A stretch of 64,000 bases of DNA. Source: Massalongia carnosa (lineage: Eukaryota). Location: the NCBI GenBank assembly GCA_965645245.1, contig OZ287072.1:2542001-2606000 (forward strand). Reading direction: 5' to 3'. A program made the position numbers and the translations under genes. Of this stretch, positions 5,605 through 50,500 are shown piece by piece. Under the pieces are notes generated by a model. That model worked only from the letters and a program-made list of their open reading frames with translations, made no database searches and was not told where the DNA came from. The stretch's first letter is position 1. Each line of letters starts with the position of its first letter.

Positions 5605-5767
5605 TGTAGAAGTATGAGGTTATTCATTGTTGTTATATTTATGATTCTATGACTCTACTTCTAAGGTCTGAAATCCTCCTAGTCCAGGATGCGTGCCGCA
5701 TACCGGAATAGGTCTACTGTTACACGTGACCATAATAATGTCTAGCGCCATAGGTTGGTATCCAACA
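5605..5767 (-). repeat. 5' LTR of copia A (163 bp)
   Basis: TG..CA direct repeat of 186-350, abutting the PBS. Confidence 0.95.
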
Positions 5768-6222
5768 TCACCCATCATCACGAAAGCTCGCTCTGCAGTT
5801 GTTTAGGGTGCCCTCGGACGGTTCGCGGGACCCGTGTTGGATGAATCTATCGCCCGAGCACTTTTGTCGGAGCATCTCGTATCGGTGCAATTTTCGGAGC
5901 ATCTCGAACAACATGAGTGTCTTGAACGAGTTCGGTAAACTCGGGTCATGGGGCGGTTTCCTTGTCGTGGACGTACTGATCGGTCAAGCTTGTCGCAGGT
6001 ACGATTAAGATCTTCGTTCGCAACGGTTCTCGGTCCGAATACGGACCGTCATCCATGAAGGCCTTGTCGCCAGATGTCCCATGGCTATCATCAAACAGCT
6101 CGATGCCTTGGTCAATGATAGCCCGGATCCAAACGTGGCAGAATTCGCAGCTCAGAGAAACCCACCTGGGACTACTCGTCACGAACACCAACGCATTTGG
6201 ATCGATGCATTCCGTAATGTTC

Positions 6223-12731: not shown

Positions 12732-15700
12732 TTGGTTAATCAATACATAGTCATGGCCTCTACTTCAAACCCCCCAGTTGAGGTTTATAGGCAGGAACAA
12801 TACTGGCAGCATGAAGAACTTGATGAGACTGAGACTTCAATCCCTCCGCGTGATACGAATGAGCGAGTCAGGAGCTGGGAGACAGGAGACACACTTTCTG
12901 CCGGCCATTATCCTTACTCCATCGACGACAAGATCGTGTGAAAACCTGTCACATTGAAAGTACCCTGTCTAGCCTCTACGGCAGTTTTCTTACTAGTTTG
13001 GATTGGCATCCTTGAGTTTCTTTCTCAGATGTGCCTTCGAAATGACGGCATTGTTTTTGCCGCGTCACTGGATGCTTTTTCGAAAGCTGCTACCTTCTCA
13101 TCAACTTATCTTCCAACTATTGTTGCTATAATATTGAGCGTCATGTGGAGTTGGGTGGATTTGGATACCAAGAGGCTAGAGCCATATTTTCAGATGTCTA
13201 AACCAGGAGGAGCGTCGGCTGCTGATTCCATTCTATTGCACTATCCATTTGACTTCGTGGCCGTTGCCCCTGTGAAAGCCTTCAAGCAACGGTATTACAT
13301 CATAACCCTTCGCCGTCTGCCTCTGCTAATGCTTGCCTAAAGCCATTGGTCTGTCTTCTGCTCGGGTATGGTCACGACCATCATATTCTGGGGCATATCT
13401 CCTTTGCAGGGTGCCGTTTTCAATACGAGAATGGTGGAAAAGAAAAGTTCAGGATTGGGACATCTATACGGAGGACTCTCGTCTATCACAGAGCATGCTT
13501 TGGGATTAAATCTAAGCTTTATACCGAAAGCTTATGATTTTGTATGGATCAATCAAAGTCTCCCTCCATTACAACTTCGGATGCCGCCTAAATATCTTTC
13601 TTGATAGACGAGAATTTCGACAGTAGTTCTCCCAACAGCGGCTCTCCGAACAGGACTCTTATCGCGAGGACGTCCATGCTCAGTACAAGTATACAATGTT
13701 TGCCAGCCAGGGATTACAACACTAGCTCGCTTGAATTCGATACCATTAAACTTTCCAGCTCTTCGATGATCTACAATGTGGACGGTCAGTTTGGACGCAG
13801 TGGTAAAATGACGGTTTTCCCTACTTCTTGTTAGGATGATGAATATTGCTTTTGGTACGTTGGATATCAAGACGATATAGAAAATTCTTCATCAAGCATG
13901 AGCTGCCCGGTAAATTCATCGGGCTTGTATCTTGCTTTTATTGGATCTCCATTCGGAGAACACATTACAGCCGAATTTTGCCAAGCTAGCTATTGGATTC
14001 AAGATGTTATTCTCACAGTTGCAGAACATGACATGGCTGTTGTTTCCTCAACGCTACTCGCTTCACCAGTGAAGCTTAGCTATGATGACTTCAATCCGAC
14101 TAGCTTTCAATCTATACTATGGATAGGCAAACCAGATATCTCGACAAAATTTCCACCGAAGGTCGATCTCAGGGATGAAATACGTCATCTGGACATGAAC
14201 TGGAGACTTCACACTTTGAACATTAATCTTCAGGGCTCCTTTACGGCTGGTTTTGCTTGAATCAACGACCGATAATTTCCAAAGACTAAAAATTTCATTA
14301 GTAATCATTCAGAATTCGAACGGCGTTTGTTTTTCTTTGCAGTGTAGTCGGTGTGGGAAAGTATCAGAGCGACTCTCCTATCATCGAACCGATCAGTCAT
14401 GTCGATCGTCATTCCGGATCGTTTTCAATGAGATTTTCTCCCGCCCATTTTATCTTGGACCAATCACTGGCTTCATTTTTGTGATACTTCTTTTGGGAAT
14501 GATAGTTGCATTAATGACGCTGAAAATCTTAATCAAGTATCAAAATGGCCTTCCATACCTTATAAGAACGAGGTTGCTGTACAGGTTGTCCTTAGCTATG
14601 TTCCGGTGATATTCTCGACTTTTTTGGAACCGTATTGGATGCTTTTGAATCGGATGTTATGTCTTCTTCAGCCATTTGAAGAATTGAAAAGTTGTCGAGC
14701 CAAAGCCAAGCATTCCCTGGATTTACGTTACTCATCGCTACCTCCATCACTAGCTCTCTGGCGCGCTTTACGGGCAAAGCATCATTTATTGGCAGCAGTC
14801 TGTTCAATTTCACCCTTAGCTAATGTATTGACAGTTGGTCTGGGAGCACTTCTGAACCCAGACGCTGCATTTTCCGAGACTGATATGACTCTTAAAGCCA
14901 AAAGCAAGCCAGTCTTCAACTCAACCGCACTGGTAATAGCGTCGAGGGATACTAGCTTCCAAGATTTCTTCTATGTAACTGCAAATAACCTATCGGCGAA
15001 TACGAGTCTCCCTCCATGGACTTCCAAAGAGACGTACTTCCTACCAGCGGTCTTGGATATCAGTTATCCGGCCGAAGTCACTCTAAACACTTATGGGTTC
15101 CATGTTGGTCTCTCTTGTAATGAAGTTGCTGTCAATAAAGATATTCACCGAAGCCGAACTTTCTCATTCAATATAACCGTCATCAAACCAGACGGACGAA
15201 ACGTTGAATGCTACCTTAATCATTATGATTACGAAGAATCACAAATTGATCTATTCGGGCTTGAAGGATATGAGGATCTTACCCCAATTTTTGCGTATAA
15301 TGCAGATGCATCTGCTGATGACGCTGCTACATGTTACTCAACCTTGTCTGTCGTGTATCAGCGTGGGCTTGGAAAATCTTCCTCTAATGTTTCAGCTATC
15401 TTCACTACAACATCGAGTTTATGCCTTGTTTGTCAGCCTACTCTCGAGATTTCGAATTATTCCGTGCAGCTGTCACAGTCAGGCCATGTCATATCGTCAG
15501 TCCGCCAAAATCAACCATCAAATAACTTATCCGAGTACTTAGCTATACCGCAAAACGTCTCCGGTTTTTATCTTAATCCCAATTGGCTAATATCGCAGAA
15601 CTTCAGAGCTAATCAAGATGATTTGATGGAATATGCTCCTTTGCACAACGATTCATTTGCATCTCGATGGTTCCCGTATCTCGTATGCGTGATCTTGAGA

Positions 15701-16160
15701 TCCAGGGATACAGTCAATACTTCATTACCTGCACCATCCGCTTCTACAGTTATACCGGCAGTGTCTGCGTTGTATAGCCAGCTATCAGCTGCGATCATTT
15801 CATTGAATAGCGAGCTTTTTTCCCCCTTTCCAGCCTCCGAGGGCGTAACCATCTCCGCCACTATAAGAACCTCAGAAACGCGCGTTTTCATGTCCGATGT
15901 CATGTTCTACGTATGTAGCATCGTTCTAATCCTCGACGTGCTCGTTGCCATTGCGTACTACTGGTACCGGCCGCAGCAAATTCTGCCGTACATGCCGACG
16001 ACTATAGCCAGCCTAATATGCACATTCGAAGGCAGCAGTCTCGCAGCTGCAGGCGGAATATGGGATGCCTCATGGCTTTTTGGATTCGGCAAATTCACCG
16101 GTATGGACGGTAAGCTGAGAGTGGGCATCGAGAGGTAGCCATTTGTGCAGCCGTTACCTA
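12732..16160 (+). pseudogene. DUF3433-type multi-pass membrane protein pseudogene
   Basis: Two DUF3433-like repeats (YLPTIVAIILSVMWSWVDLDTKRLEPYFQMSKPGGASA..; FLEPYWMLLNRMLCLLQPFEEL..LDLRYSSLPP) broken into many ORFs by stops, frameshifts and an apparent internal deletion. Confidence 0.75.
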
Positions 16161-16459
16161 AGTGCCTCCAGCCAAGGGACGAGGATAAGGGTGTGAAGAA
16201 AGTGAAGAACATGAAGAATGTTAAAACGAGTTCTTCAACTCCTGATCATCAAGAACACGGCGTTAAAGTTCAAAAAAATGAAGATTTACGATACTCGAAC
16301 AGACTTCTTCCCCCCCCCCAAAAAAACAGAGCAATGTTAAAAGGCTTAAACAAAGTCAATTTTCGAAATCTCGAAACCTCATTTATTTATGTGAAAGACT
16401 ATTTAAAAAAAAATTGAAAAAAAAAGATTTAAACTTCATATTTAAAACCACAATTTCAC

Positions 16460-18163
16460 CATCGGTCCTCCTCCTTCTACACCATCGGTCCTCACCGTGG
16501 GGCGACCGTCAAACATATAGATTTGCTCCTATCTCTTCGCATCAAAACAATGCTAATTTAACGCGTTCACACGCGTCGCAGACGTACGTACGGAAGAGGA
16601 TACGAAGGCCAACCGCCGGGGGGTCGAATGCTCGCGTCCCTGCACCATACTTCTAAGGGTTCAAGTCCCTTCATGCAGTCATCAGCTGGAAGAAGATGTG
16701 GACCAAAGGAGCCGCATCATCCCCCACCCGGACACAGTCGACACGCGCTCTAGCTCCTGAGAGTTCAAGTCTCCCCATGCAGTCATCAGCTGGGATCAAC
16801 AGAACGCGTAAAGGCACCGGGGCGAATGCTGTCACCTCAAGAAAACTCCATCTCGGAGCAGAATAACAATATCCCATTTAACAGGCCTGGCCTGTTAAAC
16901 AAAATCGAGGAAAACACAGAGTCACAAAACACATAGTCATCAATCACACGTTGTACAAAGCACACAATCACAGCACACAGTCACAAACACACAGTCACAA
17001 AACACACAGTCACAAAACACACAGTCACAAATCAATAACACGTCCCTGTGAAGGAGGTTCTGCGGGGGCTCGTTAAGGCAGATCTGCACCCCGTTAATAT
17101 CGGAGTACATATTTTAAGAGGTTCAAGTCCTTTCTAGCAGTCATCAGCTGAAAATAATGCATTTTGACACGGGCATGGTGTGGATTTGACACGGGCAGAC
17201 CTCGATGGATCACAAAACGAATGAAAAGAGTTCAGCGGAACTTCGTTAATATTGTTCTCGAAGATCTCGTTAATAAGATTTTCATAGACCTCGTTAACAA
17301 CGTTCGATCATACTCTTAAAGGTTCAAGTCCTTTCATGCAGTCATCGGCTGAAAGCTAGAGACGTACGACACGGGTCAGCTATGTCTATCACACGGGTCT
17401 CCTTCGTCTACAACACGGAGCCCTCCGGCTGAAAGAAATAAAACATATAGACACATAGTGTAGGGTCACACCCTACACGATACAAGGGATTTGGGTTATG
17501 AAAACCATCCGATTGATGGCTACCGTGAGCAACACGGCCCGAACCGGAGTCGTACCGGGGATGGTAGAGGCAACCTAGTCATCAAATAGGACACCCTTGG
17601 GACAAGAAGAGGGCAATATACGAGGAACCCGTTAATTGATAACAGTCTAGGCCCTGAGCTAATAGACGAATTTCAAACGAGCACTCCTCCGAGTTGTCCT
17701 CGACTCGTTTTGGTTAGTAGAGACGGGAAATCGATACTATACTGCCTGGTCAGGAGCATAGTGGTCGAAATCCCTGCGAGACATGGTCGGTTCATAAACG
17801 GGAGACCTTTATGAATAACGCGAAGTGGGCATAAAAAACCCGTGAGGCGTGGTATGCAATGGCGGCCACCGTACGGAGACCGTCTGCATAGCCCGAGAGG
17901 ACAGTATGCGCATGTCGGTTTATATAGAGCAGGGAATGTCTATCTCGCTCGTAACGAGACCCCGTCGGTTCGCCAGCGCATGGGCTACGGCTAGACTCGC
18001 CCTTGATATATGCTTAAGGAGTAAACTGGGTTTGACCTGGGCGAAAGGGACGTCGTTCACCCCAATCGTAGAATTCATCAATAGTCTTGGGCCGTAAAAC
18101 GCACCAGTGAGATGAACGAAAACTGGGATAGAGGCTTCACGAAGGAGATGTCAACTCTATTTT
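16460..18163 (+). ncRNA. Retrocopy of a putative large structured non-coding RNA (identity unknown, possibly Pol III)
   Basis: No credible ORF; four GTTCAAGTC B-box/T-arm modules; many hairpins with GNRA/UNCG loops and nested long-range helices; ends in hairpin + TTTT at the LINE junction; no T5 run on + strand. Confidence 0.6.
16910..17031. repeat. ~15-bp C/A-rich tandem repeat (CACACAGTCACAAAA)n
   Basis: Four near-perfect and several degenerate copies. Confidence 0.85.
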
Positions 18164-18170
18164 ATCATTC

Positions 18171-21100
18171 TTAGAAAAGGCAAAGAGAACAAACTTTCGT
18201 CAAGAAATCAATAAGGCCACCGAAACGCCTCAGGGCGAGATGCTTAGGGGCAGTCCCCCCCCGACCGTCCCCCTGTGTAAATCTTTGCTAGTAAACAGCC
18301 ATTTCACTGCTCATCCAGGGTGCGTACAAGCTAGTAATGCAACTGCCAACAGCACATTAAACTCTTTTCGGTTTAAATCGTATGACGTATTTATTGCTAC
18401 TAATAATTACCCTACTCGGTCTGATAAAGCATACCCTCACCCTCACCCTCACCCTCATCCTCACCCTCACTTACCATTTGCCCTTGCCCTAACCCTTTGC
18501 CCTCTCTAAATCTCTCCTTCCACTTATGCTATACCTCATATTATATATTTTACTACTTCTCATCGCGATGAAGTTCGATTCCACTTCTTTGGATGCACGA
18601 AAGCAACATGCCATTGCCCTTCTGTCCTCACCTCACCTTCTTCCTCCGCAAGAGAATGAGTTATTTGCGTCTTGGAAGGAGGCAAAGACTCGTCTTCAAG
18701 ACTATGCCTTCATTCAAGGCTTCGCGTTGATCACAGAAACTCACGATAAGAAAAACCATTTAGTCGTATTAGACTACACACGCCACCACAAAAGAGTTAG
18801 AAACACTAGAAAAGTAAGGGAGGAAGACCGGATGCGAGCCAATACCAAAGTTTCGTTCAATGAGTGCCCTTATCGCCTCCGTCTCAAAAAAAAAACAAAG
18901 ACAATGCATGGAGACTAATAGTTACTAACTCCGAGCACAATCATGAAATGGTCACTGATCCCTTTGCATTCAGAGAACACCATAGTAGGGACCCTGATCG
19001 AACAGATGCCCTAGATCAAGGGAAGAGTCTCCGTGCATCGTCAACCCAATATGGCCAAGCAGCGAGAATATTAGGAACCCAAGGACTCCGTCTGTCGAGG
19101 AGCGATTATTATAATCTCGCTCATTCGGAGGGAGCTCACACGCCTGAAGAAGAGCTTCTTTTTGCCTTGGGCTCGTTGAAAGACAGGGGCTTTCATGTAC
19201 GGTGTAAGGAAAAATATATTGTTAAGAATAATGTGCGTGAGAGACGGGTGATAGAACAAATTTTTTTTTGCAATGCGGAGCAAATTAGGCTGGGTCGACG
19301 TTTCGTGGTGGTTTTCTATTAGAAACCGATGCAACGTTCAATACTAATAAATTGAACTTGCCTTTATCCGTTTTGGTTGGAATCACTAACACCGACCTTT
19401 CGTTTCCCGTCGCTTATTGCTACATAACTTAATCCTACCTCAGGCAGCGCCGCCTCCATCTCTTTATAGTCTTAGCCAAAACGTGCGCGTCAGTCAAATT
19501 CTCTCTACTTCCTCTGCAACAACGCGAAGGTCTCGGGGTGTGGCGAAGAAATCAAAGGCTCGGTTGGAGTTGAGATCTCAGCAAAAAGTCGAGAAATCAG
19601 TCAAACAGGCTAGGGCTCAAGCGGGAAAGGAAACGGCGATGAGAAAGGTGGTTAAAACTAGAAAAGATGATGTATCGCAATTGGCTGACGAGTTTTTGGA
19701 GTTGAAGTCATCGCAATAGGTAGATTTGTAGATGTTGAATACACTTAGTCAGTAACAGCAACATTATTAATACGTAGTTTAACTGCTAGCTTGTACGCAC
19801 CCTGGATGAGCAGTGAAATGGCTGTTTACTAGCAAAGATTTACACAGGGGGACGGTCGGGGGGGGACTGTCCCTAAGCATCTCGGCCTCAGGGACTATGG
19901 CGGCTAGCGAAATGGGCCAAAGACAAAAGTCATCAATCTAGAGAAGTATCCAAAATGCCGATGCTAAAATTCAATGACCAAGTAGCAGACACGTTTGACC
20001 AAAAAGCCGAAATGCTGAAAGGTGTCTTCTTTCCCGCACCACCACCGGCCGACCTAAGCGACATAGAAGGATCCTTCTATCCTACATCGCCGCACTGCCC
20101 AATAATCATCACCAAGTCAGAAGTATCGACGGCCCTGAGTCGGCTCAAGTCCGATAAGGCACCGGGCCCAGACGGCATATCTAACGGAATACTCAAAGCA
20201 TGCAGCGAAATAATTGTCGAACTACTAACACCTCTGTTTCAAGCGTGCGTCACACACTCGTACCACCCGCGGGCCTTCAAAATGGCAAACACCATAGCGC
20301 TGAAAAAATAGGCAAAGGAGACTATACCACGCCGAAAGCCTACCGACCAATTGCACTGCTCAACACGCTCAGTAAAGTTATGGAATCCATCATTGGATCG
20401 AAAATAACCTATCTAGCGGAAAAACACCGGCTCCTACCCGACACACAGATGGGAGCAAGGAAGGGCAGATCCACAGAGTCAGCACTGGAACTGCTAACTG
20501 AACAGGTTCGCACGATTTGGGGACAGGGAAAAGACAAAGTAGCCACACTGCTAAGCATGGACGTCGCCGGCGCGTTCGATACGGTATCTCATCAACGACT
20601 AACGCACAACCTACGGAAAAGAAAAATTCCAAAATGGATCACCGACTGGTTAAACAGCTTTCTGAGCGATCGAAGCACCACTTTAGCAATAAATCGAAAA
20701 GTCACCGGGCGGTTTGCGGTAAGAACGGGTATCCCGCAGGGCTCTCCCCTGTCATCAATTCTTTACCTATTTTACAATGCAGATCTATTGGAAATATGTG
20801 ATCGACCAGGCAAAAATACAAGTGCCATAGGATTCGTAGACGACGCAAACATTTTGGCATATGGAAAAAGCACCGAGGAAAACTGCAAAACTCTAGAGGC
20901 AATACACAGACAATGTGAGACGTGGGCTTCCCGGCACGGGTCCGTATTCGCTCCGACGAAGTACGAACTCATACACTTGTCCAGAAATCCCAAAAGATTC
21001 AACATGACTGCATCCATCAATATTGCTAGCACCGAAATTGAACCTAAAACGGACATCAGAGTATTGGGCCTACAAATCGACACCAAATTGAAATGGGGAC

Positions 21101-22388
21101 CGCACGTTCGCAAAACGCAAGAGAAAATGGTCAAAAAATCCATGGCATTGACAAAAATTTCCACATCAACCTGGGGTGCCACCTTCGCCAAGGCAAGGCA
21201 GGTGTACAGTGCCGTGGTGCGTCCGGCCATGACATATGGGTCAACCGTATGGCACATGCCCAAAGAAGTCAAAAAGTCAAAAACGTCAACGAGCAAGCTC
21301 TCCGTCATGCAAAACAATTGCCTTCGCACCATTGCCTTCGCACCATAGCCGGTGCCTTTAAAGCCACTCCCATCTCAGTACTAGAAGCAGAGACATTCAT
21401 AACGCCCATAGACACGCATCTCGACATGCTACATGCACAGGCAAGGCACCGGCTCCGAGCCGGAGGCCAATTGAAGATCATATCCTCCGCATGCAACAAA
21501 ATAGCTGACAAACTTCGAGGCAAGGCAGGTCGCAAACGACTTCAAAAGCCCACCCCGGGAGAGCTGAAACACATCTGGGCCAAAAGCCTACTGATCGACT
21601 CAAAAATAGTTCAACCATCAAAGGCACACCCACCATGGTTCGAAGTCTACCCGGCGTGGCACCGTGAAGCTACCGTTGCGGCAACGGCCCGACACAAGCA
21701 GATGCAAACAATCAAAACACGACAAATGAAGGTCTGGAACGACTCGTGGTGCGCATATCAAAATCGCGCGTCATCGAACCCTCCATAGCACAATCAGTCC
21801 CACTGAGCAAAAAACGGCTGATAATACACACCAGCTAAAAAAGGCAGAAATCGCTCTAACAACACAAATCCGCACTGGCAAGATCGGGTTAGCTGACTTC
21901 CTCTACAAGCGACGGGTGCCCTCCGTCACCTCACCGGCCTTCTCATGTGGCTGGCACAGACAAACTCCAGAACATGTAATCATGTTCTGCAGACTTATTG
22001 ACAATAGAGAACAGATGTTTCGCGCCGCCGGCACGAGCGACTATCAGCAGCTGACCAAATCATCAAAAACTCTGAAGATACTAATTGCTTGGCTAATGAA
22101 AACAGGCTTATTGAATCAATTCTCACTAGCATCAACATTATTGTAAAATCAACAATAGTTGAACCTTTCTTTCTTTCTTCTCTTTTCACAAGGCATTACA
22201 GTTCCCACACGTCTTTTGCACTACGTCTCCCGCCCGACGTCGACCCGTAGTCACATCGGACGGGTATCAAGGGACATGATTTTTACACCTGTGAAAGGTT
22301 TTCCATGTAACATAACTTAGATAGCTTTGCCCGCATGGGCCGGCCTACGGCCGGTGTCATATCGGAATATGAATACATCATCATCATC
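18171..22388 (+). mobile_element. Tad1-clade LINE copy 1, 5'-truncated ORF2 (RT + C-terminal CCHC) with frameshifts
   Basis: KAKRTNFRQE..PQG|LWRLAKWAK joins across the MULE; KAPGPDG, YRPIALLNTLSK, GIPQGSPLS, FVDD, CGWHRQTPEHVIMFC; 3' hairpin CCGGCCTACGGCCGG and (ATC)n tail. Confidence 0.95.
18236..19884 (+). mobile_element. Mutator (MULE) element 1, internally deleted, inserted into the LINE
   Basis: 99-bp TIRs (18236-18334, 19786-19884); 9-bp TSD GCCTCAGGG (18227-18235, 19885-19893); transposase relic with FAR1-like region (CPYRL..HNH), ETDATFNTNKLNLPL..FPVAYC, then a jump to the C-terminus. Confidence 0.95.
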
Positions 22389-22675
22389 AAAACCACAATT
22401 TCACTTTTCTGTAATTTGCTTGTAATTATTAACAGTTTTGACGAAGCTGGTGAGAAGAGTTTTCAAAATTTTGATGAGATGTTTACTTATTGGTGCTGGC
22501 GCAAAAGGTGGTTGGGATGCAAAAGAAGTTGAACACGAGTACGTGCTGTTCGATCAATCTTTCATGTCATGCAATGCAGCGCTTCTTAACAGCAGACATT
22601 AAGATCAATTGCGAGAAAAGTGTTAACAAGATCTTTTGCGACGAACACATCTATGGAAAACAGCGATTAACCGTG

Positions 22676-38787: not shown

Positions 38788-41700
38788 ATGGGCTTACGGG
38801 TTTTATATCCATCAAAAGACGCTGGGAAGTCGGAGGTCATCAAGGCTGAGTGAGCCTTTATACATCGCCGCTCCTGTAACATACCGATATACTTACGTCT
38901 TCTACTCAGTATCGTTGCGGTTCATGGCCTCAATGGAGACCCGAAGAACACTTGGACGAGCCGTCAGACGAATGCCTTCTGGCTCAAAGACTTCCTTCCA
39001 CACGACGTACCTAATGCTCGGGTCATGACATTTGGATACAATGCTGATGCGGCATTCGGGAACACCACTGCAGATATCATAGATCATGCAAGGAGTTTGC
39101 TTAGCGGTCTGATTGATAAGCGCGAGGAAGATGATGTGGGTTGCCGATATTCATTAGATCCTGAAGACGCTAAGGCTAAGATATTTCTTAGGAGCTGCGC
39201 CGTCCTATTATATTTGTCGGACATTCGCTCGGCGGAATAGTGATTAAACAAGTCAGTGCTAAGTTTGATCAAGAGGCGTGTGTCTAATGTTGCGTAATCC
39301 AGGCGTTGTTTCAGGCAAAACTTGAGCATCGATACAGCAGCATCAGCGAGTCCACAATCGGGATTGTGTTTCTGGGAACTCCTCATCGGGGAAGCGAAAA
39401 AGCAGCATACGGAAAGGTTCTTGCAACTCTTGCTACGGCTGTTCTGAACAAATCATCGCCACGCCTTGTCAATGCTTTGCAAGTGAACAGTGAGGCGTTG
39501 ATGTCACTTACGACCAACTTTAGATTTCAGCTACCAAAATATCAGGTGTATAGCTTCTACGAGATGAAGCCAATGAAGATGCTTACTACTTTGGTAAGCA
39601 CCAAGATGAGAACTTTGCTTATAAATATAAACTTGACCAACAGAACAATTTTTACTAGATCGTGGAAAAACATTCTGCACTGTTAGAGATCGACGGAGAA
39701 GAACAGATTCCAGTGGACGCAAACCACGAAGAGATGTGCAAGTTCATGGAGCGCGAGGACGACGTATATGAGAAGCTTTTCAAGAGGGTTCGTAGGATGA
39801 TAAAGCAACAAGATAGCGTTCCTTCAAATAAATCCTGTACGTAGATTCAACCAAAGTACTCATTTAAAATGATTTTGCATATATGTTTTGCTCATGTGAA
39901 ACTAGATCTTTGCAGTTTCTCGTCCTATAACAAGCATTACTGTGTTCCTCTCAACCTAAGTACGATATTTACTGGCCGTGATGACTTAATTCAAAACATC
40001 TCTGAAGGGTGTTTACCCTTCGACAATGAAAAAATGCCTTCTAAGCAGAAAAGGTTTGTTTTGTTTGGCCTAGGAGGCTCAGGAAAGACTCAAGCCTGTC
40101 TTAAATTCGCTCAAGATTATCGGGAAAGGTAAGTGGTTAAACCCGAGAGCTTTCGGGCTTGTGTCTGTTACAGGACTGATGCTGAAGGTTAGGTTTTGGG
40201 GTATCTTCTGGATCGATGCGAGTAGCTACATTACAGCTCAACAAGGGTTTTTGGAAATATCTCGAACATGTGGAGTGAAAGAGGACCCTAAGGCTATAAG
40301 ACAATGGTTGTCGAATATTCAAGATCCCTGGCTGCTGATAATTGACAACGCCGATGACCCGTCTCTAGACGTCTCCGACTTCTTTCCGACAGGCAATAGA
40401 GGCTCCATCCTGCTCACTACTCGCAATCCTGACTGTAAGATCCACTCAACTGTAGGCTCGTGCAAGCTCGGACAACTGAACATGGACGAGGCCGTGACGC
40501 TTCTGTTGAAAGCTGCTGGGGCGGAAGATACAGCTGATGAGGATGCACGAAGGAAGGCAAAGCCTGTAATCCAGACGTTGGGCTTTTTGGCGCTTGCAAT
40601 CACTCAAGCCGGCGCATATATACGGCGGGGTCTCTGTAGCATCGAAGAATACTGTGACGTGTACACCCGTCGTCGGCAAAAACTGCTAAGGCATCGATCA
40701 GTTCAAGCGAGCTCCGATTATAAATATAGCGTGTACACGACCTGGGAGATCTCCATCGAAGCAATCGAGAAGAAGCGTGACGAGACTTCTCATAATGCTA
40801 TGGAACTCCTTCGAATATTTAGCTTCTTGCATTACGATGGGATTACCGAAGACATATTTGAGCAGGCGTGGAGAAATAACTATAAGAGAGAAGACTCGTT
40901 TCAAGACATAATTCATATGTTTTACATACAACCCCAACAAAAAGCAGGAGATTGGGATCCAACAATGATTCGAGAAGCGGCAGATCTTCTTGCGTCGTTC
41001 TCACTTATAAATTTAGGTAGAGAGAGAGATACTAAAAGGATTGATGAAACGGGGCGTCGCATGTCAATGCATCCATTGGTACATGTGTGGGCCAGAGACC
41101 GACTCTCGGAAGATCTTCAGAGATGTTCCTGGATAATAACCAGTTCCACCCTAGCTGCTACCATGTCTTGGGAATATGCGCTGACCGACTATCGCTTCCG
41201 ACGGTCTTTGCTGCCTCATATCGAGTCTTGCATAAGTCTTTGCAGAGATAAGCCGTTTCTTGACGAATACTCAGAGCTCAATCGTGTTAGTGTGGCGGAG
41301 GGGTTTGTGTTGGCGTTTCGTGAGAATGGCCGGCTGCAGGAGGCAATGGAATTGGGAGAAAAGGTGTTGAAGGCACGTCAGAGGACGCAGGGAAGCGAAC
41401 ATCCGGACACTCTCAGGACGATGAACAGTCTTGCAATTAGTCATAGCGATTTAGGACGCAAAAAGGAGGCAATGGAATTGCAAGAAAAGGTGTTGGAGGC
41501 ACGTCAGAGGACGCTGGGAAGCGAACATCCGGACACTCTCAGGACGATGAACAGTCTTGCAATTAGTCATAGCGATTTAGGACGCAAACAGGAGGCAATG
41601 GAATTGAAAGAAACGGTGTTGAAGGCACATCAGAGGACGCTAGGAAGCGAACATCCGGACACTCTCAGGACGATGAACAATCTTGCAAATAGTTATAGCG

Positions 41701-42911
41701 ATTTAGGACGCGAACAGGAGGCAATGGAATTGAACGAAACAGTGTTGAAGGCACGTCAGAGGACGCTGGGAAGCGAACATCCGGACACTCTCATAACGAT
41801 GAACAATCTTGCAAATAGTTATAGCGATTTAGGACGCAAACAGGAGGCAATGGAATTGAACGAAACAGTGTTGAAGGCACATCAGAGGACGCTAGGAAGC
41901 GAACATCCGGACACTCTCAGGACGATGAACAATCTTGCAAATAGTTATAGCGATTTAGGACGCAAACAGGAGTCAATGGAATTGAACGAAACAGTGTTGA
42001 AGGCACGTCAGAGGACGCAGGGAAGCGAACATCCGGACACTCTTTATACGATGAACAGTCTTGCAATTAATTATAGCGATTTAGGACGCAAACAGGAGGC
42101 AATGGAAGTGCAAGAAACGGTGTTGGAGGCACGTCAGAGGACGCTGGGAAGCGAACATCCGGACACTCTCAGAACGATGAATAGTCTTGCAATTAGTCAT
42201 AGCGATTTAGGACGCAAACAGGATGCAATGGAATTGAACGAAACGGTGTTGAAGGCACGTCAGAGGACGCTGGGAAGCGAACATCCGGACACTCTCGGGA
42301 CAATGAACAATCTTGCAAATAGTTATAGCGATTTAGGACGCAAACAGGGGGCAATGGAATTGAACGAAACAGTGTTGAAGGTACGTCAGAGGACGCTAGG
42401 AAGTGAACATCCGGACACTCTCTGTACGATGAACAATCTTGCAAATAGTTATAGCGATTTAGGACGCAAACAGGAGGCAATGGAATTGAAAGAAAAGGTG
42501 TTGAAGGCATGTCAGCGGACGCTAGGAAGCGAACATCCGGACACTCTTTATACGATGAACAGTCTTGCAATTAATTATAGTGATTTAGGACGCATACAGG
42601 AGGCAATGGAATTGCAAGAAACGGTGTTGGAGGCACGTCAGAGGACGCTGGGAAGCGAACATCCGGACACTCTCAGGACGATGAACAATCTTGCAAATAG
42701 TTATAGCGATTTAGGACGCAAACAGGAGGCAATGGAATTGAACGAAACAGTGTTGAAGGCACGTCAGAGGACGCTGGGAAGCGAACATCCGGACACTCTC
42801 ATAACGATGAACAATCTTGCAAATAGTTATAGAGATTTAGGACGCAAACAGGAGGCACTGGAATTGGATGAAAAGGTGTTGAAGGCACGTCAGAGGACGC
42901 TGGGAAGCTAA
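38788..42911 (+). CDS. Fungal NLR: SesB-like alpha/beta-hydrolase, NB-ARC, TPR repeats (multi-exon)
   Basis: Spliced N-terminus DIVAVHGLNGD..FWLKDFLP..ARVMTFGYNA..IIFVGHSLGGIVIKQ..IVFLGTPHRGS..VDANHEEMCKF; P-loop GLGGSGKT, WLLIIDNADD, LTTRN, LALAITQAG, MHPLVH; twelve 42-aa HPDTL repeats. Confidence 0.92.
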
Positions 42912-43075
42912 CATCCGGACACTCTTAAAGTGATGGACGACCTTGCTGTTAGTTATTATGGTTTTTGACGTAAACAGGAGGCAGTAAATTTGATAGAAGA
43001 GACGCTGAAAGCAAGTCAAAAGACGTTGGGAAGTGAATATTCAACTACCCTTCGTGCGATGAACAATCTTGCGGA
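41335..43075 (+). repeat. 126-bp tandem array encoding TPR units (12 translated, ~2 beyond a premature stop)
   Basis: Near-identical GGAAGCGAACATCCGGACACTCTC.. units every 126 bp. Confidence 0.95.
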
Positions 43076-43489
43076 TTTTAAGCAGGAGGATCTAAAGTGT
43101 GATCTATCAATCATGTGAACGATGCATGCCTCCTCGAGCGTACTTCCCAATCCAGGCAATTCCGAATTCTGCGGTCGTCGTCATGTCGAAAACCGCACGA
43201 GCTTCAACTATCCCAGATCGAGCCGATACAGTAGATGTTAGTAGATCGCTTGATAATTCAGCTATGAGGCGTGCGTTGACGACACATTGAAATAGTCTCC
43301 TTCACAATACAAGACCTTTTTTTCTTGATCATGCTCAAAGTACGGTAGCTTCGATCAGTAATGTATTTCACTGGCTTTCTTCTCATGGCTGCGCCGATAA
43401 CTCACACTTTGCACATGGGAATCGTCATACGAACACATCCAAAGCGCAACAGTTCGCGGAAGCAAAATACAAACGCCAAAAAGAAATCA

Positions 43490-43908
43490 ATGAGGTCAAC
43501 GCCGCCGGTCATCAACCACCTTCTCCCGTTTTAATCATGCAAGGTCGTAGAATAATGCAGAACTGGTTCCAAGAAGGGCTGCCCACGGGGACTCTGATTG
43601 AAGTATCAGAAAGTGGGTACATCACCGATGAAATAGCCATTGAAGTTTTGAAGCACTTCATTGCGAATACAAACTTGGGGCCTACAAAGCAGTGGAAATT
43701 GATGCTCATAGATAATCATAGGACTCATTGCACCCCTGAGTTTATAAAGCTTGCCAGTTAAAATCACATTCGCCCTCTCCCCCTGATACCACATCTGACT
43801 CATTGTATGCAACCCCTTGATATGGGCGTATTTCAACCCTATAAGCATTGGCATGATAAGGCTATCCAAGATGTCCTTGCAGAGTTCAACACTGAGAATA
43901 ATGAGAAT
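43490..43908 (+). pseudogene. Fot1/pogo DDE_1 transposase fragment
   Basis: SESGYITDEIAIEVLKHF..LMLIDNHRTH..*..HLTHCMQPLDMGVFQPYK. A probable element end with doubled CTACGCAGACCGCTT lies at 46681-47221. Confidence 0.8.
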
Positions 43909-44079
43909 GATGAGGGTGATGAGGGTGATGAGGGTGATGAGGGTGATGAGGGTGATGAGGGTGATGAGGGTGATGAGGGTGATGAGGGTGATGAGGGTGA
44001 TGAGGGTGATGAGGGTGATGAGGGTGATGAGGGTGATGAGGGTGATGAGGGTGATGAGGGTGATGAGGGTGATGAGGGT
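43909..44079. repeat. (GATGAGGGT)19 perfect minisatellite
   Basis: 171 bp of perfect 9-mers, read as (DEG)n in the transposase frame. Confidence 0.97.
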
Positions 44080-44157
44080 GATGAGGATGAGCAGTTTAAC
44101 TTTTATCAAGGGGGGTTATCGTCAGACTAGGAGTTAATATTAGAACGCGCAATTGAT

Positions 44158-46369
44158 GAAGATGATGATGATGTATTCATACTCCGATATGACACCGGCC
44201 GTAGGCCGGCCCATGCGGGCAAAGCTATCTAAGTTATGTTACATGGAAAACCTTTCACAGGTGTAAAAACCATGTCCCTTGATACCCATCCGATGTGACT
44301 ACGGGTCGACGTCGGGCGGGAGAGGCAGTGCAAAAGACGTGTGGGAACTGTAATGCCTTGTGAAAAGAGAAGAAAGAAAGAAAGGTTCAACTATTGTTGA
44401 TTTTACAATAATGTTGATGCTAGTGAGAATTGATTCAATAAGCCTGTTTTCATTAGCCAAGCAGTTAGTATCTTCAGAGTTTTTGATGATTTGGTCAGCT
44501 GCTGATAGTCGCTCGTGCCGGCGGCGCGAAACATCTGTTCTCTATTGTCAATAAGTCAGCAGAACATGATTACATGTTCTGGAGTTTGTCTGGGCCAGCC
44601 ACATGAGCAGGCCGGTGAGGTGACGGAGGGCACCCGTCGCTTGTAGAGGAAGTCAGCTAACCCGATCTTGCCAGTGCGGATTTGAGTTGTTAGAGCGCTT
44701 TCTGCCTTTTTTAGCGGCGTGTGTATTTTCAGCCGTTTTTTGCTCAGTGGGACTGATTGTGCTATGGAGGGTTCGATGACGCGATTTTGATATGCGCACC
44801 ACGAATCGTTCCAGACCTTCATTTGTCGTGCTTTGATTGTTTGCATCTGCTTGTGTCGGGCCGTTGCCGCAACGGTAGCTTCGCGGTGCCATGCCGGGTA
44901 GACTTCGAACCATGGTGGGTGTGCCTTTGGTGGTTGAACTATTTTTGAGTCGATCAGTAGGCTTTTGGCCCAGATGTGTTTCAGCTCTCCCGGGGTGGGC
45001 TTTTGAAGTCGTTTGCGACCTGCCTTGCCTCGAAGTTTGTCAGCTATTTTGTTGCATGCGGAGGATATGATCTTCAATTGGCCTCCGGCTCGGAGCCGGT
45101 GCCTTGCCTGTGCTTGTAGCATGTCGAGATGCGTGTCTATGGGCGCTATGAATGTCTCTGCTTCTAGTATTGAGATGGGAGTGGCTTTAAAGGCACCGGC
45201 TATGGTGCGAAGGCACTTGTTTTGCATGACGGAGAGCTTGCTCGTTGACGTTTTTGACTTTTTGACTTCTTTGGGCATGTGCCATACGGTTGACCCATAT
45301 GTCATGGCCGGACGCACCACGGCACTGTACACCTGCCTTGCCTTGGCGAAGGTGGCACCCCAGGTTGATGTGGAAATTTTTGTCAATGCCATGGATTGTT
45401 TGACCATTTTCTCCTGCGTTTTGCGAACGTGCGGTCCCCATTTCACTTTGGTGTCGATTTGTAGGCCCAATACTCTGATGTCCGTTTTAGGTTCAATTTC
45501 GGTGCTAGCAATATTGATGGATGCAGTCATGTTGAATCTTTTGGGATTTCTGGACAAGTGTATGAGTTCGTACTTCGTCGGAGCGAATACGGACCCGTGC
45601 CGGGAAGCCCACGTCTCACATTGTCTGTGTATTGCCTCTAGAGTTTTGCAGTTTTCCTCGGTGCTTTTTCCATATGCCAAAATGTTTGCGTCGTCTACGA
45701 ATCCTATGGCACTTGTGTTTTTGCCTGGTCGATCACATATTTCCAATAGATCTGCATTGTAAAATAGGTAAAGAATGGATGACAGGGGAGAGCCCTGCGG
45801 GATAACCATTCTTACCGCAAACCGCCCGGTGACTTTTCGATTTATTGCTAAAGTGGTGCTTCGATCGCTCAGAAAGCTATTTAACCAGTCGGTGATCCAT
45901 TTTGGAATTTTTCTTTTCCGTAGGTTGTGGGTTAGTCGTTGATGTGATACCGTATCGAACGCGCCGGCGACGTCCATGCTTAGCAGTGTGGCTACTTTGT
46001 CTTTTCCCTGTCCCCAGATCGTGTGAACCTGTTCAGCTAGCAGTTCCAGTGCTGACTCTGTGGATCTGCCCTTCCTTGCTCCCATCTGTGTGTCGGGTAG
46101 GAGCCGGTGTTTTTCCGCCAGATAGGTTATTTTCGATCCAATGATGGATTCCATAACTTTACTGAGCGTGTTGAGTAGTGCAATTGGTCGGTAGGCTTTC
46201 GGCGTGGTATAGTCTCCTTTGCCTATTTTTTTCAGCGCTATTGTGTTTGCCATTTTGAAGGCCCGCGGGTGGTACGAGTGTGTGACGCACGCCTGAAACA
46301 GAGGTGTTAGTAGTTCGACAAGTATTTCGCTGCATGCTTTGAGTATTCTGTTAGATATGCCGTCTGGGT
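44158..46369 (-). mobile_element. Tad1-clade LINE copy 2, 5'-truncated
   Basis: Very similar to copy 1; TSD AACGCGCAATTGAT at 44144-44157 and 46370-46383; (ATC)n tail; RT frame open from PDGISNRIL to CSCGWPRQTPEHVIMFC. Confidence 0.96.
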
Positions 46370-46696: not shown

Positions 46697-47200
46697 TGTC
46701 AGGGGACTGGATTGGATGGTCAAGCTTTCTAATTGACTGAGTCTATAGCTACAGCTAGGCTAGATTGGCTATTCAAGACGTCGGACAAGGAGCTAGAACT
46801 TTCGAGGCTCGTCCCCTTCTTTTATATCTGTTCCTTACCTCCTTACCCCTTTGTTTCCTTGATATTCGATGTCTCCTATTCATCTCCTTTTCCTAAGTTA
46901 ATATGAAGACACCTAATGGGGACCGGGTAATTATGGTTTCGAAGATCGGAGGCGGAGCCGTACTCGATCTAACCGCATCGAGAAAGGTTGGAACAGCGCG
47001 CACTGACCAATGAAGCTGTGGTAGGTCCAATGAACCCGCGGTAGTTCCAATGAACCTGCGTTAGGTCCAATGAACCTGCGGTAGGTCCAATGAACCTGCA
47101 GTAGCTCCAATAAACCTGCGGTACGGTAGGTAGGGACAGGATAGAGGGGGCAACTACGGATAAGGCCGAGATCTTTTTGGTTCGAAGCCGTTTCATGACA
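46697..47200. mobile_element. Solo LTR (504 bp) with an internal 20-bp tandem repeat
   Basis: TGTCA..TGACA ends; 5-bp TSD GCTTG (46692-46696, 47201-47205); GTAGGTCCAATGAACCTGCG-like unit x5 at ~47021-47120. Confidence 0.88.
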
Positions 47201-47527
47201 GCTTGCCTACGCAGACCGCTTTCCCCGATTAGAGATGGTACATACACCTCGTATTGAGGCAGCTAAGCGAGGCCGACGATTATATTCGACAATTGTGTGT
47301 CTTTTAAATATGGAACACTACTTGCATCGACGATCGCAAACAGCGACGGTTATCAATTTAATCTTGATAAGAATTATTCTCAATCTAATTCTGACTACTT
47401 AGCATAAGTCGAATAGAGGCAAAGAATATACGATGAGTTTACTTACTGGTCATCATCGTCGCATTTTTAACATGCTACGAATAGTTCTCGAGATCTTTGA
47501 TGCGCTATTGGACTGATTATTAAAAAG

Positions 47528-50500
47528 TGTTGAATATCCAATTCCTACCAGCACAATGAATACCTATCAGTACGATGAACATAGCACCTACGGCTGTCCT
47601 AGTTGGACAGATCATCTACGGAAACCGTAGATGCCGCATTAGGCTTACTCCTAAGATAAGATAAGATCACCTCGCTTAGAAGGGGGTGACCAGTAATAGG
47701 AAAAGATTGCTGCCTAGCAACTCTTCATCCTTAACATCACGGTCATACATACCTTTATTATTACATAGCCATATAGCCATAGTCATATACCTATTTCAAC
47801 AGGTTATGAGCCCGGAAGGGTGCTATCGATTTAAACTAATCGAAACTTTTAATCCGCAGCTTCGCAGTGCAATCAGCTAAGCATCGTTCCTATTCAATGA
47901 ATCGTAGACACATGACTAAAATCTTTCTGTGTCTTTAGAAACGATCCCTTAAATCACATCAATCAGTTCTCTCTTCTGTACACAGCGATTTCTTGTCAGA
48001 AGCACAAAAACTGCGTGTTAGAAAGAGCATGAACACATTGATCGTACTACACTCAAGCCCTCGGACACCAAAGAGCTTGCTAAGCTCGATGGTCGAAGGC
48101 ACTCAAGTCCTCGGACACCAAAGAGCTTACTAAGCTCGATAATCGAAGGCACTCAAGTCCTCGGACACCAAAGAGCTTGCTAAGCTCGATGGTCGAAGGC
48201 ACTCAAGTCCTCGGACAGCAAAGAGCTTGCTAAGCTCGATGGTCGAAGGCACCCAAGTCCTCGGACACCAGAAGAGCTTGCTATGCTCGCTGGTCGAAGG
48301 CACTTAAGTCCTCGGACACCAGAAGAGCTTGCTAAGCTCGATGGTCGAAGGCACCCAAGTCCTCGGACACCAGAAGAGCTTGCTATGCTCGCTGGTCGAA
48401 GGCACTTAAGTCCTCGGACACCAAAGAGCTTGCTAAGCTCGCTGGTCGAAGGCACTCAAGTCCTCGGACACCAAAAGAGCTTGCTAAGCTCGATGGTCGA
48501 AGGCACTCAAGTCCTCGGACACCAAAAGAGCTTGCTATGCTCGATGGTCGAAGGCACTCAAGTCCTCGGACACCAAAGAGCTTGCTAAGCTCGATGGTCG
48601 AAGGCACTCAAGTCCTCGGACAGCAAAGAGCTTGCTAAGCTCGATGGTCGAAGGCACTCAAGTCCTCGGACAGCAAAGAGCTTGCTAAGCTCGATGGTCG
48701 AAGGCGCTCAAGTCCTCGGACACCAAAGAGCCCGCTAAGCTCGATGGTCGAAGGCGCTCAAGTCCTCGGACACCAAAGAGCCCGCTAAGCTCGATGGTCG
48801 AAGGCACCGAAGTCCTCGGACACCAAAGAGCTCGCTAAGCTCGATGGTCGAAGGCAAAAACAAGTATATTGCTGGCCCTGAGCGCCCAATTGGTTCAAAA
48901 ATCATCAAAGCGTCAGTTCACCCGTGGTTGAGTTCTGGACACGCAAAAAATACAAAATCCCTCGGACATCAAAGAGCTTAGTAAACTCATTGATCGAAGG
49001 CACAAAGACATTTCTTTTTGGCAATTATGCCTCCTTAAGGCACTAGATGAGATTGTGCGGCAGTTGCCTCTTATTATTTAACCGGCCTAAGGCCGGTTAA
49101 ATCAAATTGGAATAACCCTGCGCTCAATTTGCTTTTGGTCAATTGGACCCTTGAAAAAGCCGGAGTTGAAATTCTCATCATGGCAAACAAGCATGTTAAG
49201 CAAACAGGTTTCTCTGTTAAGACATCAAAGTGGACACTGGCTAAGGAGGGACTGTTTTTTCCTTGTCTATAAGAAAGGTCACAGATCCACATTCTTTCAG
49301 TCACTACTAAGTTTCTCGCCTTGTTCAATTGCTCCCCATTCTCCCATTATGTCTATCATAGATACGTCACATCTTTTGGAGAAAGCCGAAAGATATTCGG
49401 CATGGGCAAGCTATACGAAGGGCGTTCTGCTCAAGAACAACTGCGAAGGAGCCATTCTGGAGAATCAATCAGAAATCACCGCTGAAACCATCAAGGAAGG
49501 TTTAATACAAGCAGGCTTCGACGCCAAAGGTCTTTCAGTCAGCATCTTGGTAAAAGAACTGCGTGACTAGAAGAATAGACAGAAGGCCGAGATGACCAAG
49601 GCTATAGGAATCATTCACGGATTAGTTGCGGAGTGCCATTACAGCCTCATCGACAACAAGAATGTGGCAGAAATGTGGAAAATCCTGAAGGATAGATTCC
49701 AAGATATAGCACCAATGAGCATCAGCGACATCATTCTGAAGGTTAGTTCCAAGAAGATGACCGACTTCGAGACGACCAGTCTATACTGTGCATATTACGA
49801 GAGCGCTTTAAACAAGATTAAAGGAATGCTGGACGACAAGGCCAAAGTGGATGTGCATACCGTGGAGTTTATGCTTAAGGGAATGATGCTGGGTAACACC
49901 AGACGTCTATTCCCCATTGATAGCCCAACTTCGACGAGATTGAACATACGAAACCACAAACCTGTCGGAAGCAATGAAGACCATTATTGCTTATTATGTC
50001 AACATGAAAATCACCAAGGCACTTCATATCAGCACACCTGACTCAAGAGGTCGAGCCCCATCAGGGAACTGCACCTTCTCTTAATGTGTCAAGAGAAAGA
50101 ACACTCGTCATTGGCTAGATACCTGTTTGCAGAAGTTTCCACAGTTAAAAAGACATAGAAGTTCGCTCGAATCCGGAAGAGCAAAGGAACAAAAGACTAC
50201 CTCGTTAGAAACGAAGGCGGACTTATCTCATACATCAACCAACATTTCAACGACCATTGACACTCCAGATTTGAGGATGCATTTGAGCAAAGTGGACGAG
50301 GATACCTATCAAGGACTGGACGTCATTATCTGTTAAATCAAAACTCACTACATGGCATGGAAGGCTTGGTCATCTCAACATAGCAACGTGTCGAAAATAT
50401 CTGAAAACGCTAGACATAACGTACGATGACGATATCAACCACGGTTGGTTTTGCCATGCATGCGAAATGGGAAAAGCCAAAAAGATATACAACCGAACAC

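Follow-up and report, generated by a model that had tools for sequence, protein, structure and literature searches.

What is the densely folded RNA encoded at positions 17455-18163 of a 64,000-nt stretch of the Massalongia carnosa genome (contig OZ287072.1, positions 2,542,001 to 2,606,000; hereafter the window, whose coordinates are used throughout), and to what does it belong? An earlier note, made from the letters of the window alone, had described here a large structured RNA of the + strand, possibly an undescribed non-coding RNA or ribozyme. We confirmed the observation itself: 17455-18163 specifies a conserved folded RNA, and this domain together with T-loop modules upstream of it keeps its secondary structure by compensatory change on the + strand. 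As for its identity, it probably forms the 3' domain, folded and conserved, of a non-coding head RNA (16460-18174) belonging to a composite retroelement of the MINE (Mixed Interspersed Nuclear Element) type. The head is a discrete repeat devoid of a long open reading frame (ORF), and its copies, all ending invariantly in ...TTRG, meet one family of long interspersed nuclear elements (LINEs) at differing internal points.

A conserved folded RNA domain at 17455-18163

All helices named in the earlier note could be located at their coordinates and are present in the window sequence as written. The minimum free energy of 17455-18163 on the + strand was -230.9 kcal/mol (z -1.96, 1 of 20 shuffles as good), and a larger shuffle set gave z -2.0 (2 of 100 as good), while the corresponding values for the - strand were -2.18 (0 of 20) and -2.54 (1 of 100). 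Since both strands give similar, marginal values of about -2, folding energy, which had been proposed as a check, neither singles out the region nor chooses a strand. Thermodynamics alone is thus a marginal signal, and it is covariation that provides the decisive evidence.

All six frames of the 3' domain are interrupted by at least six stops apiece in every one of the seven aligned sequences (see below), gap runs in their alignment are mostly not multiples of three (63+20 vs 18), and the only ORF of at least 80 aa in the domain (17849-18097, 82 aa) has no Pfam match. The covariance models of Rfam 15, including those for group I/II introns, RNase P/MRP, telomerase RNA, the signal recognition particle (SRP) RNA and hammerhead, hepatitis delta virus (HDV) and twister ribozymes, gave 0 matches to the window at the gathering score. 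This agrees with the earlier failure to match the domain to a group I intron, RNase P/MRP or telomerase RNA. A permissive scan (E<=10) of 16500-19000 returned a lone chance match, SpR10, at 16.1 bits vs a gathering score of 50, and the only other match at E<=10, again by chance, was mir-582 in metagenome locus L002. ARAGORN predicted 0 tRNA and 0 tmRNA (transfer-messenger RNA) genes in the window.

Homologues were sought in the JGI metagenomes, where an exact 23-mer of the GAGA hairpin had 0 matches and a degenerate pattern of the 47-nt T-loop motif, found in the modules upstream of the domain, recovered seven contigs (L001-L007). Six of these loci possess a homologue of 17266/17463-17942 that is 61-67% identical, extending in two cases to 18172; the seventh, L002, holds a solitary module only. 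The same motif had 0 matches in IMG/VR and 0 in prokaryotes (one genome each of 185,579 species).

We aligned the window with the six homologous loci (alignment A1: seven sequences, 1,089 columns, mean column identity 64%). Long invariant blocks, including ATGGCGGCCAC, GAGACCGTCT, GAGAGGACAG, GCGCATGTCGGT, TAACGCGAAG, GAGACATGGTCGG, ATGCTTAAGGAGTAAAC and TTTGGTTAGT, alternate in it with stems that change on both sides, and RNAalifold places 207 pairs on the alignment, with compensatory change in 86. The cleanest test is offered by the 75 pairs in 16 helices of the earlier note, which had been predicted from the window alone and were scored on A1 against controls in which the pairing partners were slid by 1-3 columns. 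We determined that 88.8% of their cells are paired vs 26.4-50.3% after sliding, and that 27 pairs changed on both sides vs 1-8. None of 500 shuffles reached the observed value on four of five measures, the fifth, 'further pair types', being not significant (200/500). The claim of a large structured RNA domain is therefore borne out, its fold being kept by compensatory change in six metagenome homologues.

The supported helices comprise the 17458 hairpin, CCGT/ACGG, TCCCTGC/GCAGGGA, GACATG/CATGTC, TATGCA/TGCATA, TTCATAAA..GG-GAGA-CC..TTTATGAA, CC-GAGA-GG, TCGCCC/GGGCGA and ATAGAG/CTCTAT. The GNRA-type tetraloops that had been pointed out thus belong to the supported + strand domain, in which two core hairpins are capped by GAGA. 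Five of the 16 helices fail on A1. AAACGAG/CTCGTTT is not conserved (49% paired), and GACGGG/CCCGTC, GG-TTCG-CC and C-TACG-G have their partners within an insertion limited to the window and L006; the two UNCG-type hairpins among them are therefore present in the window but not conserved. The fifth pair of the CCGTG hairpin fails as well, and CC-GTGA-GG forms no hairpin in the consensus fold.

A curated model was made from the RNAalifold model by adding GACATG/CATGTC and CC-GAGA-GG and removing four weak helices. It consists of 196 pairs in 35 helices, of which 94.9% are paired vs 37-44% slid and 85 changed on both sides vs 12-23 slid; 0/500 shuffles reached it on four measures and 41/500 on the fifth. 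Two sets of long-range RNAalifold pairs, between the ACACGGGC motif and GCCCG (138-142/747-751) and between 129-133 and 875-879, were weakly supported and were dropped. Across the alignment G-U cells outnumber A-C cells by 53 to 6 (33 to 5 in a further count), which identifies the + strand as the RNA, in keeping with the original call. The model divides the domain as follows.

17458..17599, + strand: subdomain I, consisting of the 17458-17478 hairpin and a branched arm closed by CAAGGG/CCCTTG (17483-17488 / 17594-17599); curated helices 6-14
17717..18014, + strand: core of the 3' domain; curated helices 19-30 and invariant columns
18036..18160, + strand: subdomain III, including the terminal hairpin ATAGAG/CTCTAT (18128-18133 / 18155-18160); curated helices 31-35
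18161..18174, + strand: single-stranded 3' tail ending in ...TTAG, at which the head is invariably joined (TTRG in every copy); from the alignment and from sequencing runs X6 and X7, which diverge after 18174

In the core, a hairpin arm occupies 17717-17777, GACATG/CATGTC (17780-17785 / 17911-17916) closes a multi-helix junction whose four hairpins include the two bearing GAGA tetraloops, and GGTTTATA/TATATGCT (17917-17924 / 18007-18014) closes a further arm; long invariant single-stranded blocks are also present. In the terminal hairpin of subdomain III pairing is complete (100%), and five of the six pairs changed on both sides.

Some strands of the core have two equally supported partners: TCCCTGC (17771-17777) pairs with 17717-17723 or 17929-17935, and GCAGGGA with 17771-17777 or 18000-18004. 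The strands GTAGAGA, TCCCTGC, GCAGGGA and CCCTT (17717-17777 / 17929-17935 / 18000-18004) thereby allow two mutually exclusive schemes, each with compensatory changes, which could represent an alternative fold or an artefact of the few lineages.

Two ribozyme-like assignments were considered and set aside. The invariant GTCATCAG reads CUGAUGA on the - strand, as in a hammerhead, an idea that was rejected for the lack of an Rfam match, for a hairpin that does not abut CUGAUGA and for the + strand G-U bias. Every head ends in G, as group I-like 3'-splice-site hydrolysis would have it, an idea otherwise unsupported, and Rfam Intron_gpI has no match.

Upstream of the 3' domain, repeat analysis recovered a 47-nt repeat family (D11) containing GGTTCAAGTCC, with four copies in the head.

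16646..16692, + strand: T-loop module 1, with outer stem, hairpin loop TTCAAGT, CTTG/CATG linker and CAGT-CATCA-GCTG hairpin; D11, alignment A2
16750..16796, + strand: T-loop module 2; D11, alignment A2
17108..17154, + strand: T-loop module 3; D11, alignment A2
17309..17355, + strand: T-loop module 4, directly 5' of the 3' domain; D11, alignments A1 and A2

Alignment A2 pools 20 module copies from the window and the loci, and folds into a small three-way unit composed of an outer stem, a 5-bp hairpin, a CUUG linker and a CAGU-CAUCA-GCUG hairpin. The hairpin loop UUCAAGU is invariant in 20/20 copies. Of the 13 pairs, 95.4% are paired and nine changed on both sides, with 50 cells changed on both sides vs 18.7 shuffled and 5-14 slid. 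A further closing helix, CUCGU/ACGGG, is tentative; it lies between the flanking CTCGTTAA and ACACGGGC motifs, is 76% paired and shows CG->UA in four copies. The module hairpin resembles the T-arm of tRNA, or the B box; the B-box-like motif GGTTCAAGTCC occurs four times in the head, and no convincing A box was recognized in it by eye.

The 2.5-kb contig of L002 carries its solitary module (1560-1659, ~95 nt, 71-75% identical to the head modules) amid ORFs of ordinary appearance, and neither a 3' domain nor a LINE is near it. The module may be what is left of a decayed head, or it may indicate that modules occur outside heads as well.

A discrete ORF-less repeat joined to a LINE

Nine public sequencing runs contain part of 16500-18230, and we aligned the contigs of four runs with different organism codes (X1, X2, X6, X7) to the window. 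None of the nine is recorded as RNA, which speaks neither for nor against expression of the head. In X6 a contig of 8,164 nt follows the window over 16481-18174 (38 other letters, 43 gap letters) and bears no likeness to it on either side. Contigs of X7 match from 16461/16469 to exactly 18174 and have unrelated flanks. In X1, 6,106 contigs could be aligned (2,485 at >=99% identity, 2,353 at 95-99%, 1,133 at 90-95% and 135 at <90%), and the summed depth, which is not to be equated with copy number, rises from 762-1,712 at 15500-16437 to 242,014-614,712 at 16438-18179, so that the head stands at >100x the neighbouring gene. The sharp ends, the unrelated flanks and this jump in depth together assign the domain to a high-copy repeat unit of about 16460-18174. 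What the earlier note had taken for a large structured non-coding RNA is such an RNA, and one absent from Rfam; it is not a free-standing gene, as the domain forms the 3' 40% of an ORF-less, LINE-fused, repeated 1.7-kb head. Within the 64-kb window, repeat analysis and blastn showed the 3' domain to be present once only; the head is similar neither to the 3' region of the LINE nor to any other part. The unit and the element to which it is fused are laid out below.

16445..16459, strand not assigned: left target-site duplication AAACCACAATTTCAC, 15 nt (16 with the preceding A), read from the sequence
16460..18174, + strand: non-coding head of the probable composite retroelement, 1,715 nt, a discrete repeat with sharp ends in other runs and no long ORF
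16460..16500, + strand: 5'-terminal short tandem repeat (CATCGGTCCTC... twice) of varying copy number, with 'goes back 37' joints and an insertion behind 16489 in other copies
16514..16521, + strand: TATA-like motif CATATAGA (homologues ATATATAGAGCAGTA), in the window and 5/6 loci (L001, L003, L004, L005, L007; not in the part of L006 viewed)
18175..18235, + strand: first 61 nt of the 5'-truncated LINE body; X2 and X6 carry the same piece with other upstream letters
18236..19884, strand not assigned: nested Mutator-like element (MULE) with terminal inverted repeats (TIRs) and an AFT/FAR1-like ORF, outside the head; inverted repeat I6, 117 nt, 94%
19894..22389, + strand: rest of the LINE body, with a decayed ORF2 carrying RVT_1 (ORF 20200-21348; Pfam RVT_1 E 6.9e-30) and a (CAT)n tail ending in ...CATCATCATCATCA
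22390..22404, strand not assigned: right target-site duplication AAACCACAATTTCAC, an identical 15-mer directly after the LINE tail

The LINE is continuous across the MULE, as the letters behind 18235 in X2 and X6 reappear in the window from 19894. Its (CAT)n tail occupies 22375-22389, and the LINE of L007 ends instead in (TCAA)3.

Five head-LINE junctions could be read. All are on the same strand, every one follows ...TTRG, and each enters the LINE at a different position.

Window: junction upstream of motif 1 of the reverse transcriptase (RT)
L004: sequence continues AGFMDDVNILVWG, AGFMDD (RT motif C)
L007: sequence continues RCEEWARRHGAKF, RCEEW
L001: sequence continues ARKHGATF
L005: sequence continues into a CCHC-knuckle ORF

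The ORFs that follow the heads of L001, L004 and L007 share 54-58% aa identity with the RT region of the window. In X7 the 30 letters after the head translate to LLNCLGKIA, akin at the protein level to LLNTLSKVM of the window LINE; at the nucleotide level, nothing in the window comes within 3 mismatches of the 30 letters that follow the head in X6 or in X7.

The whole head-LINE chimera of the window is located within a single 15-bp target-site duplication. As this one duplication surrounds head and LINE together and (CAT)n stands at the far end, the pair was inserted as one cDNA by target-primed reverse transcription of the LINE. A head-less 5'-truncated copy of the same LINE, 98% identical, is found on the - strand at 44161-46368 with a 14-bp duplication of its own (ATCAATTGCGCGTT), which shows ordinary target-primed insertion by this LINE family.

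The window copy itself is a decaying insertion. Two consensus pairs are broken in it by private substitutions, the upstream frames of its LINE carry stops, and the MULE is nested inside. All four aligned runs read G at 17721 and 17920, restoring pairs 574-628 and 776-868; selection therefore seems to act on active master copies and not on the window copy.

Members of the head family vary in the number of modules (2-4), in their 5' tandem repeats, in length (~1.2-1.7 kb) and in lineage-specific insertions. Other members have 5' tandem repeats of their own, 23-35 nt long, and head starts agree within the 5' tandem repeat. A5+ runs are depleted in the heads (2 observed vs 11.4 expected from shuffles; fraction at or below the observed 0.001), and a Pol III-style avoidance of T-runs is not significant there (T5+ 2 vs 3.9 expected, T4+ 12 vs 18 expected). 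The TATA-like block sits 55-190 nt inside the head, downstream of the family-specific 5' tandem repeats, which is odd for a retro-copied RNA. The head also contains a microsatellite-like repeat, CACAGTCACAAA(A), at 16920-17030, whose length varies (insertions behind 16971 and 16988; a 'goes back 45' joint).

Origin of the chimera and rival explanations

The organization found here has a precedent in MINE of Magnaporthe grisea. According to Gogvadze et al. 2007 (PMC2104539), who name GenBank EF585235-EF585237 for WEIRD/MINE, MINE carries at its 5' end a full-length copy of a 1.1-kb non-coding transcript, WEIRD, and at its 3' end a 5'-truncated MGL LINE of which 230-5,461 nt are retained; the elements are flanked by 10-20-bp direct repeats, and 28 chimerisation sites were counted in 33 elements. 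That account gives WEIRD as having no solo copy, no similar sequence in other genomes and no known function, reports a motif GCC*A/U at the MGL donor site, and proposes that MINE arose by template switching during LINE reverse transcription, as did mammalian U6-L1 chimeras (PMC2104539). The present copies likewise combine a full-length, long ORF-less 5' part, whose RNA has no known function, with a same-strand LINE that is variably 5'-truncated and runs to its own tail. Their junctions, of which there are many, keep to one point in the head but vary within the LINE, and in the window one duplication in the 10-20-bp range surrounds the unit. As WEIRD is described in that paper, the two differ in size (1.1 kb for WEIRD vs ~1.2-1.7 kb for the heads) and in that WEIRD was reported to lack similar sequences in other genomes and has no described structure, whereas the head family spans several diverged lineages and possesses a covarying fold and repeated T-loop modules. 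In the literature that we searched, in which subscription journals are thinly covered, no account of WEIRD structure or of MINE-like elements in other fungi was encountered; apart from PMC2104539, only papers in which MINE serves as a marker came up. The element class is thus already known from one fungus, Magnaporthe; our searches turned up no earlier description of the conserved fold, of the T-loop modules or of the spread over diverged lineages. Fudal et al. 2005 is reportedly a further source on MINE, as cited by Gogvadze et al. 2007.

By analogy, the reverse transcriptase of the LINE would leave the LINE RNA part-way, resume at the 3' end of a free-standing head transcript and copy this transcript to its 5' end. 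The fold would then be selected for making the head a good passenger and for letting the product be transcribed again. Our best guess is that the fold gives rise to a stable RNA that is not polyadenylated and that may, through its terminal hairpin and tail, offer a defined acceptor 3' end, and that the fold may bring this RNA to the LINE ribonucleoprotein (RNP) or to the ribosome, the T-arm-like modules being candidate docking sites. The inserted head, in turn, may supply transcription signals to an otherwise dead truncated LINE.

Several points weigh against the MINE-type assignment or limit it. Transcription of the head, the free head RNA and the 3' end of that RNA are all things that we infer, and what the fold binds or does is a guess on our part. 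Covariation comes from seven sequences, five of which form one clade (70-85% identical to each other), so that the independent lineages number only ~3-4; one of the five shuffle measures is not significant, and some helices have equally supported alternative partners. The duplication around the unit was checked in the window only, the metagenome contigs being cut. The ORF after the head of L005 has no Pfam match, and the letters after the head in X6 could not be placed in the LINE. Differing junctions could in principle be produced by other routes. Finally, two WEIRD primers printed in PMC3978060 had 0 matches within 3 mismatches in the window, and one of them 0 exact matches in the loci, a result that excludes near-identity only.

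The rival that survives best, and which we still consider unlikely, holds that the head is a cellular housekeeping structured RNA with a master gene elsewhere, its copies being accidental retropseudogene chimeras (like U6 captured by L1) and its fold unrelated to transposition. Covariation would in that case track the master gene, and T-loop hairpins are common in cellular RNAs. The variation in module number, 5' tandem repeats, length and lineage-specific insertions described above does not suit such an RNA, and neither does its rate of divergence, which is about that of the LINE (61-67% at the nucleotide level vs 54-58% aa in the RT). The 6,106 contigs aligned from the single run X1, the lack of a solo WEIRD gene in Magnaporthe and the lack of an Rfam match also speak against a housekeeping gene.

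A bolder version of the retroelement reading, to which we assign a small chance, makes the head no captured cellular RNA but a dedicated RNA-level parasite of LINEs and a new class of non-autonomous retroelement. Its conserved fold of ~900 nt would be catalytic or self-processing, cutting chimeric transcripts exactly after ...TTRG or otherwise defining that end, and its modules would exploit tRNA-handling factors or the LINE RNP. Every new junction requires a free head RNA, and no solo gene was found in Magnaporthe, so that chimeric transcripts may be the source from which the head defines its own 3' end; self-processing would regenerate free acceptor RNA from any chimera, and would explain the missing solo master gene.

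It is very improbable that the head is the true 5' untranslated region (UTR) and internal promoter of a full-length LINE, with the junctions arising as internal deletions. The head does lie 5' of the LINE on the same strand in 5/5 copies with visible downstream DNA (window, L001, L004, L005, L007), and its 5' tandem repeats and TATA-like motif resemble the 5' UTR monomers of LINEs. However, the head side of the junction is always the same nucleotide (...TTRG) while the LINE side varies, and deletions would not respect one boundary. The head is followed by an ORF1 start in 0/5 of these copies, a weak point as no full-length LINE is among them, and in Magnaporthe full-length MGL and MINE are distinguished. 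We give next to no credence to a stand-alone, undescribed large RNA or ribozyme gene resident at the locus, since, for all that the conserved fold with its tetraloops is real and absent from Rfam, the unit is repeated, has flanks in X6 and X7 that are unrelated to those of the window and a summed depth in X1 >100x that of the neighbouring gene, sits with the LINE inside one target-site duplication and carries pair-breaking private substitutions in the window copy.

Known systems, significance and other window features

Beyond MINE, the arrangement can be compared with several known systems. Like the mammalian U6-L1 and other small nuclear RNA (snRNA)-LINE chimeras, as outlined in PMC2104539, it has the copy of an RNA whose natural 3' end adjoins a 5'-truncated LINE, an arrangement explained by a template switch in target-primed reverse transcription. 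U6, however, is short, conserved universally and a housekeeping RNA encoded by genes of its own, whereas the head is >1 kb long, fast-evolving, modular and present in high copy. Short interspersed nuclear elements (SINEs) share with it a non-autonomous, ORF-less character and a 3' part derived from a partner LINE, and the head has a perfect B-box-like/T-arm-like GGTTCAAGTCC. It differs from SINEs in lacking a tRNA by ARAGORN, in its 5-10x greater length, in its variable LINE part vs their fixed short tail and in a large covarying RNA domain that has no SINE counterpart; a tRNA-derived SINE would have a tRNA-like head and a length below ~700 nt, and here 0 tRNA genes and a head of 1,715 nt were found.

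Mimics of the T-psi-C loop serve as recruitment signals, for instance in box B of brome mosaic virus, and Pus4/TRUB1 has the target motif GUUCNANNC. The modules, as candidate mimics, are like these in their 5-bp hairpin, in a 7-nt loop UUCAAGU that fits GUUCNANNC and in covarying stems. The earlier comparison with GOLLD/ROOL was an analogy of size alone. Size, helix density and an association with mobile DNA are indeed common to them and the head; unlike GOLLD/ROOL, however, the head has no Rfam match, its T-loop motif is absent from the prokaryote set and IMG/VR, and its context is that of a eukaryotic retroelement.

Our results show that a long non-coding LINE partner forms a family whose diverged members occur in several lineages of fungi, and that purifying selection has kept in it an elaborate fold of ~200 base pairs and repeated T-loop modules. 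This turns the MINE/WEIRD oddity into a testable system for the recognition of a template-switch acceptor by LINE RT or RNP, for the birth of SINE-like elements and for self-processing. It adds to the known RNAs a large structured family absent from Rfam, and reveals no new cellular non-coding RNA gene. Were the self-processing version true, no larger conserved structured RNA would be known from a eukaryotic transposable element; the head might be a new large ribozyme, and the 20-year-old WEIRD puzzle would be explained.

As for the neighbourhood, ORFs with a domain of the fungal Pfam family DUF3433 are located upstream of the head. The arms of the MULE inverted repeat I6 lie at 18228-18344 and 19776-19892, and a 9-bp duplication GCCTCAGGG is found at 18227-18235 and 19885-19893. 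Its ORF scores E 0.0021 and 18.8 bits with Pfam AFT, under the 21.6-bit cutoff. The MULE includes low-complexity (CACCCT)n DNA with CCCTAACCCT, and is high-copy in X1 and X2. Two pairs of direct repeats (186-356 and 5605-5773; 47527-47801 and 52820-53094), ~5.3-5.4 kb apart and 93-99% identical, look like the long terminal repeat (LTR) pairs of two LTR retrotransposons. Tandem arrays occupy 41211-43148 (14 copies of a 126-nt unit), 43839-44135 ((TGATGAGGG)n), 46987-47143 (20-nt unit) and 47950-48925 (50/51-nt units).

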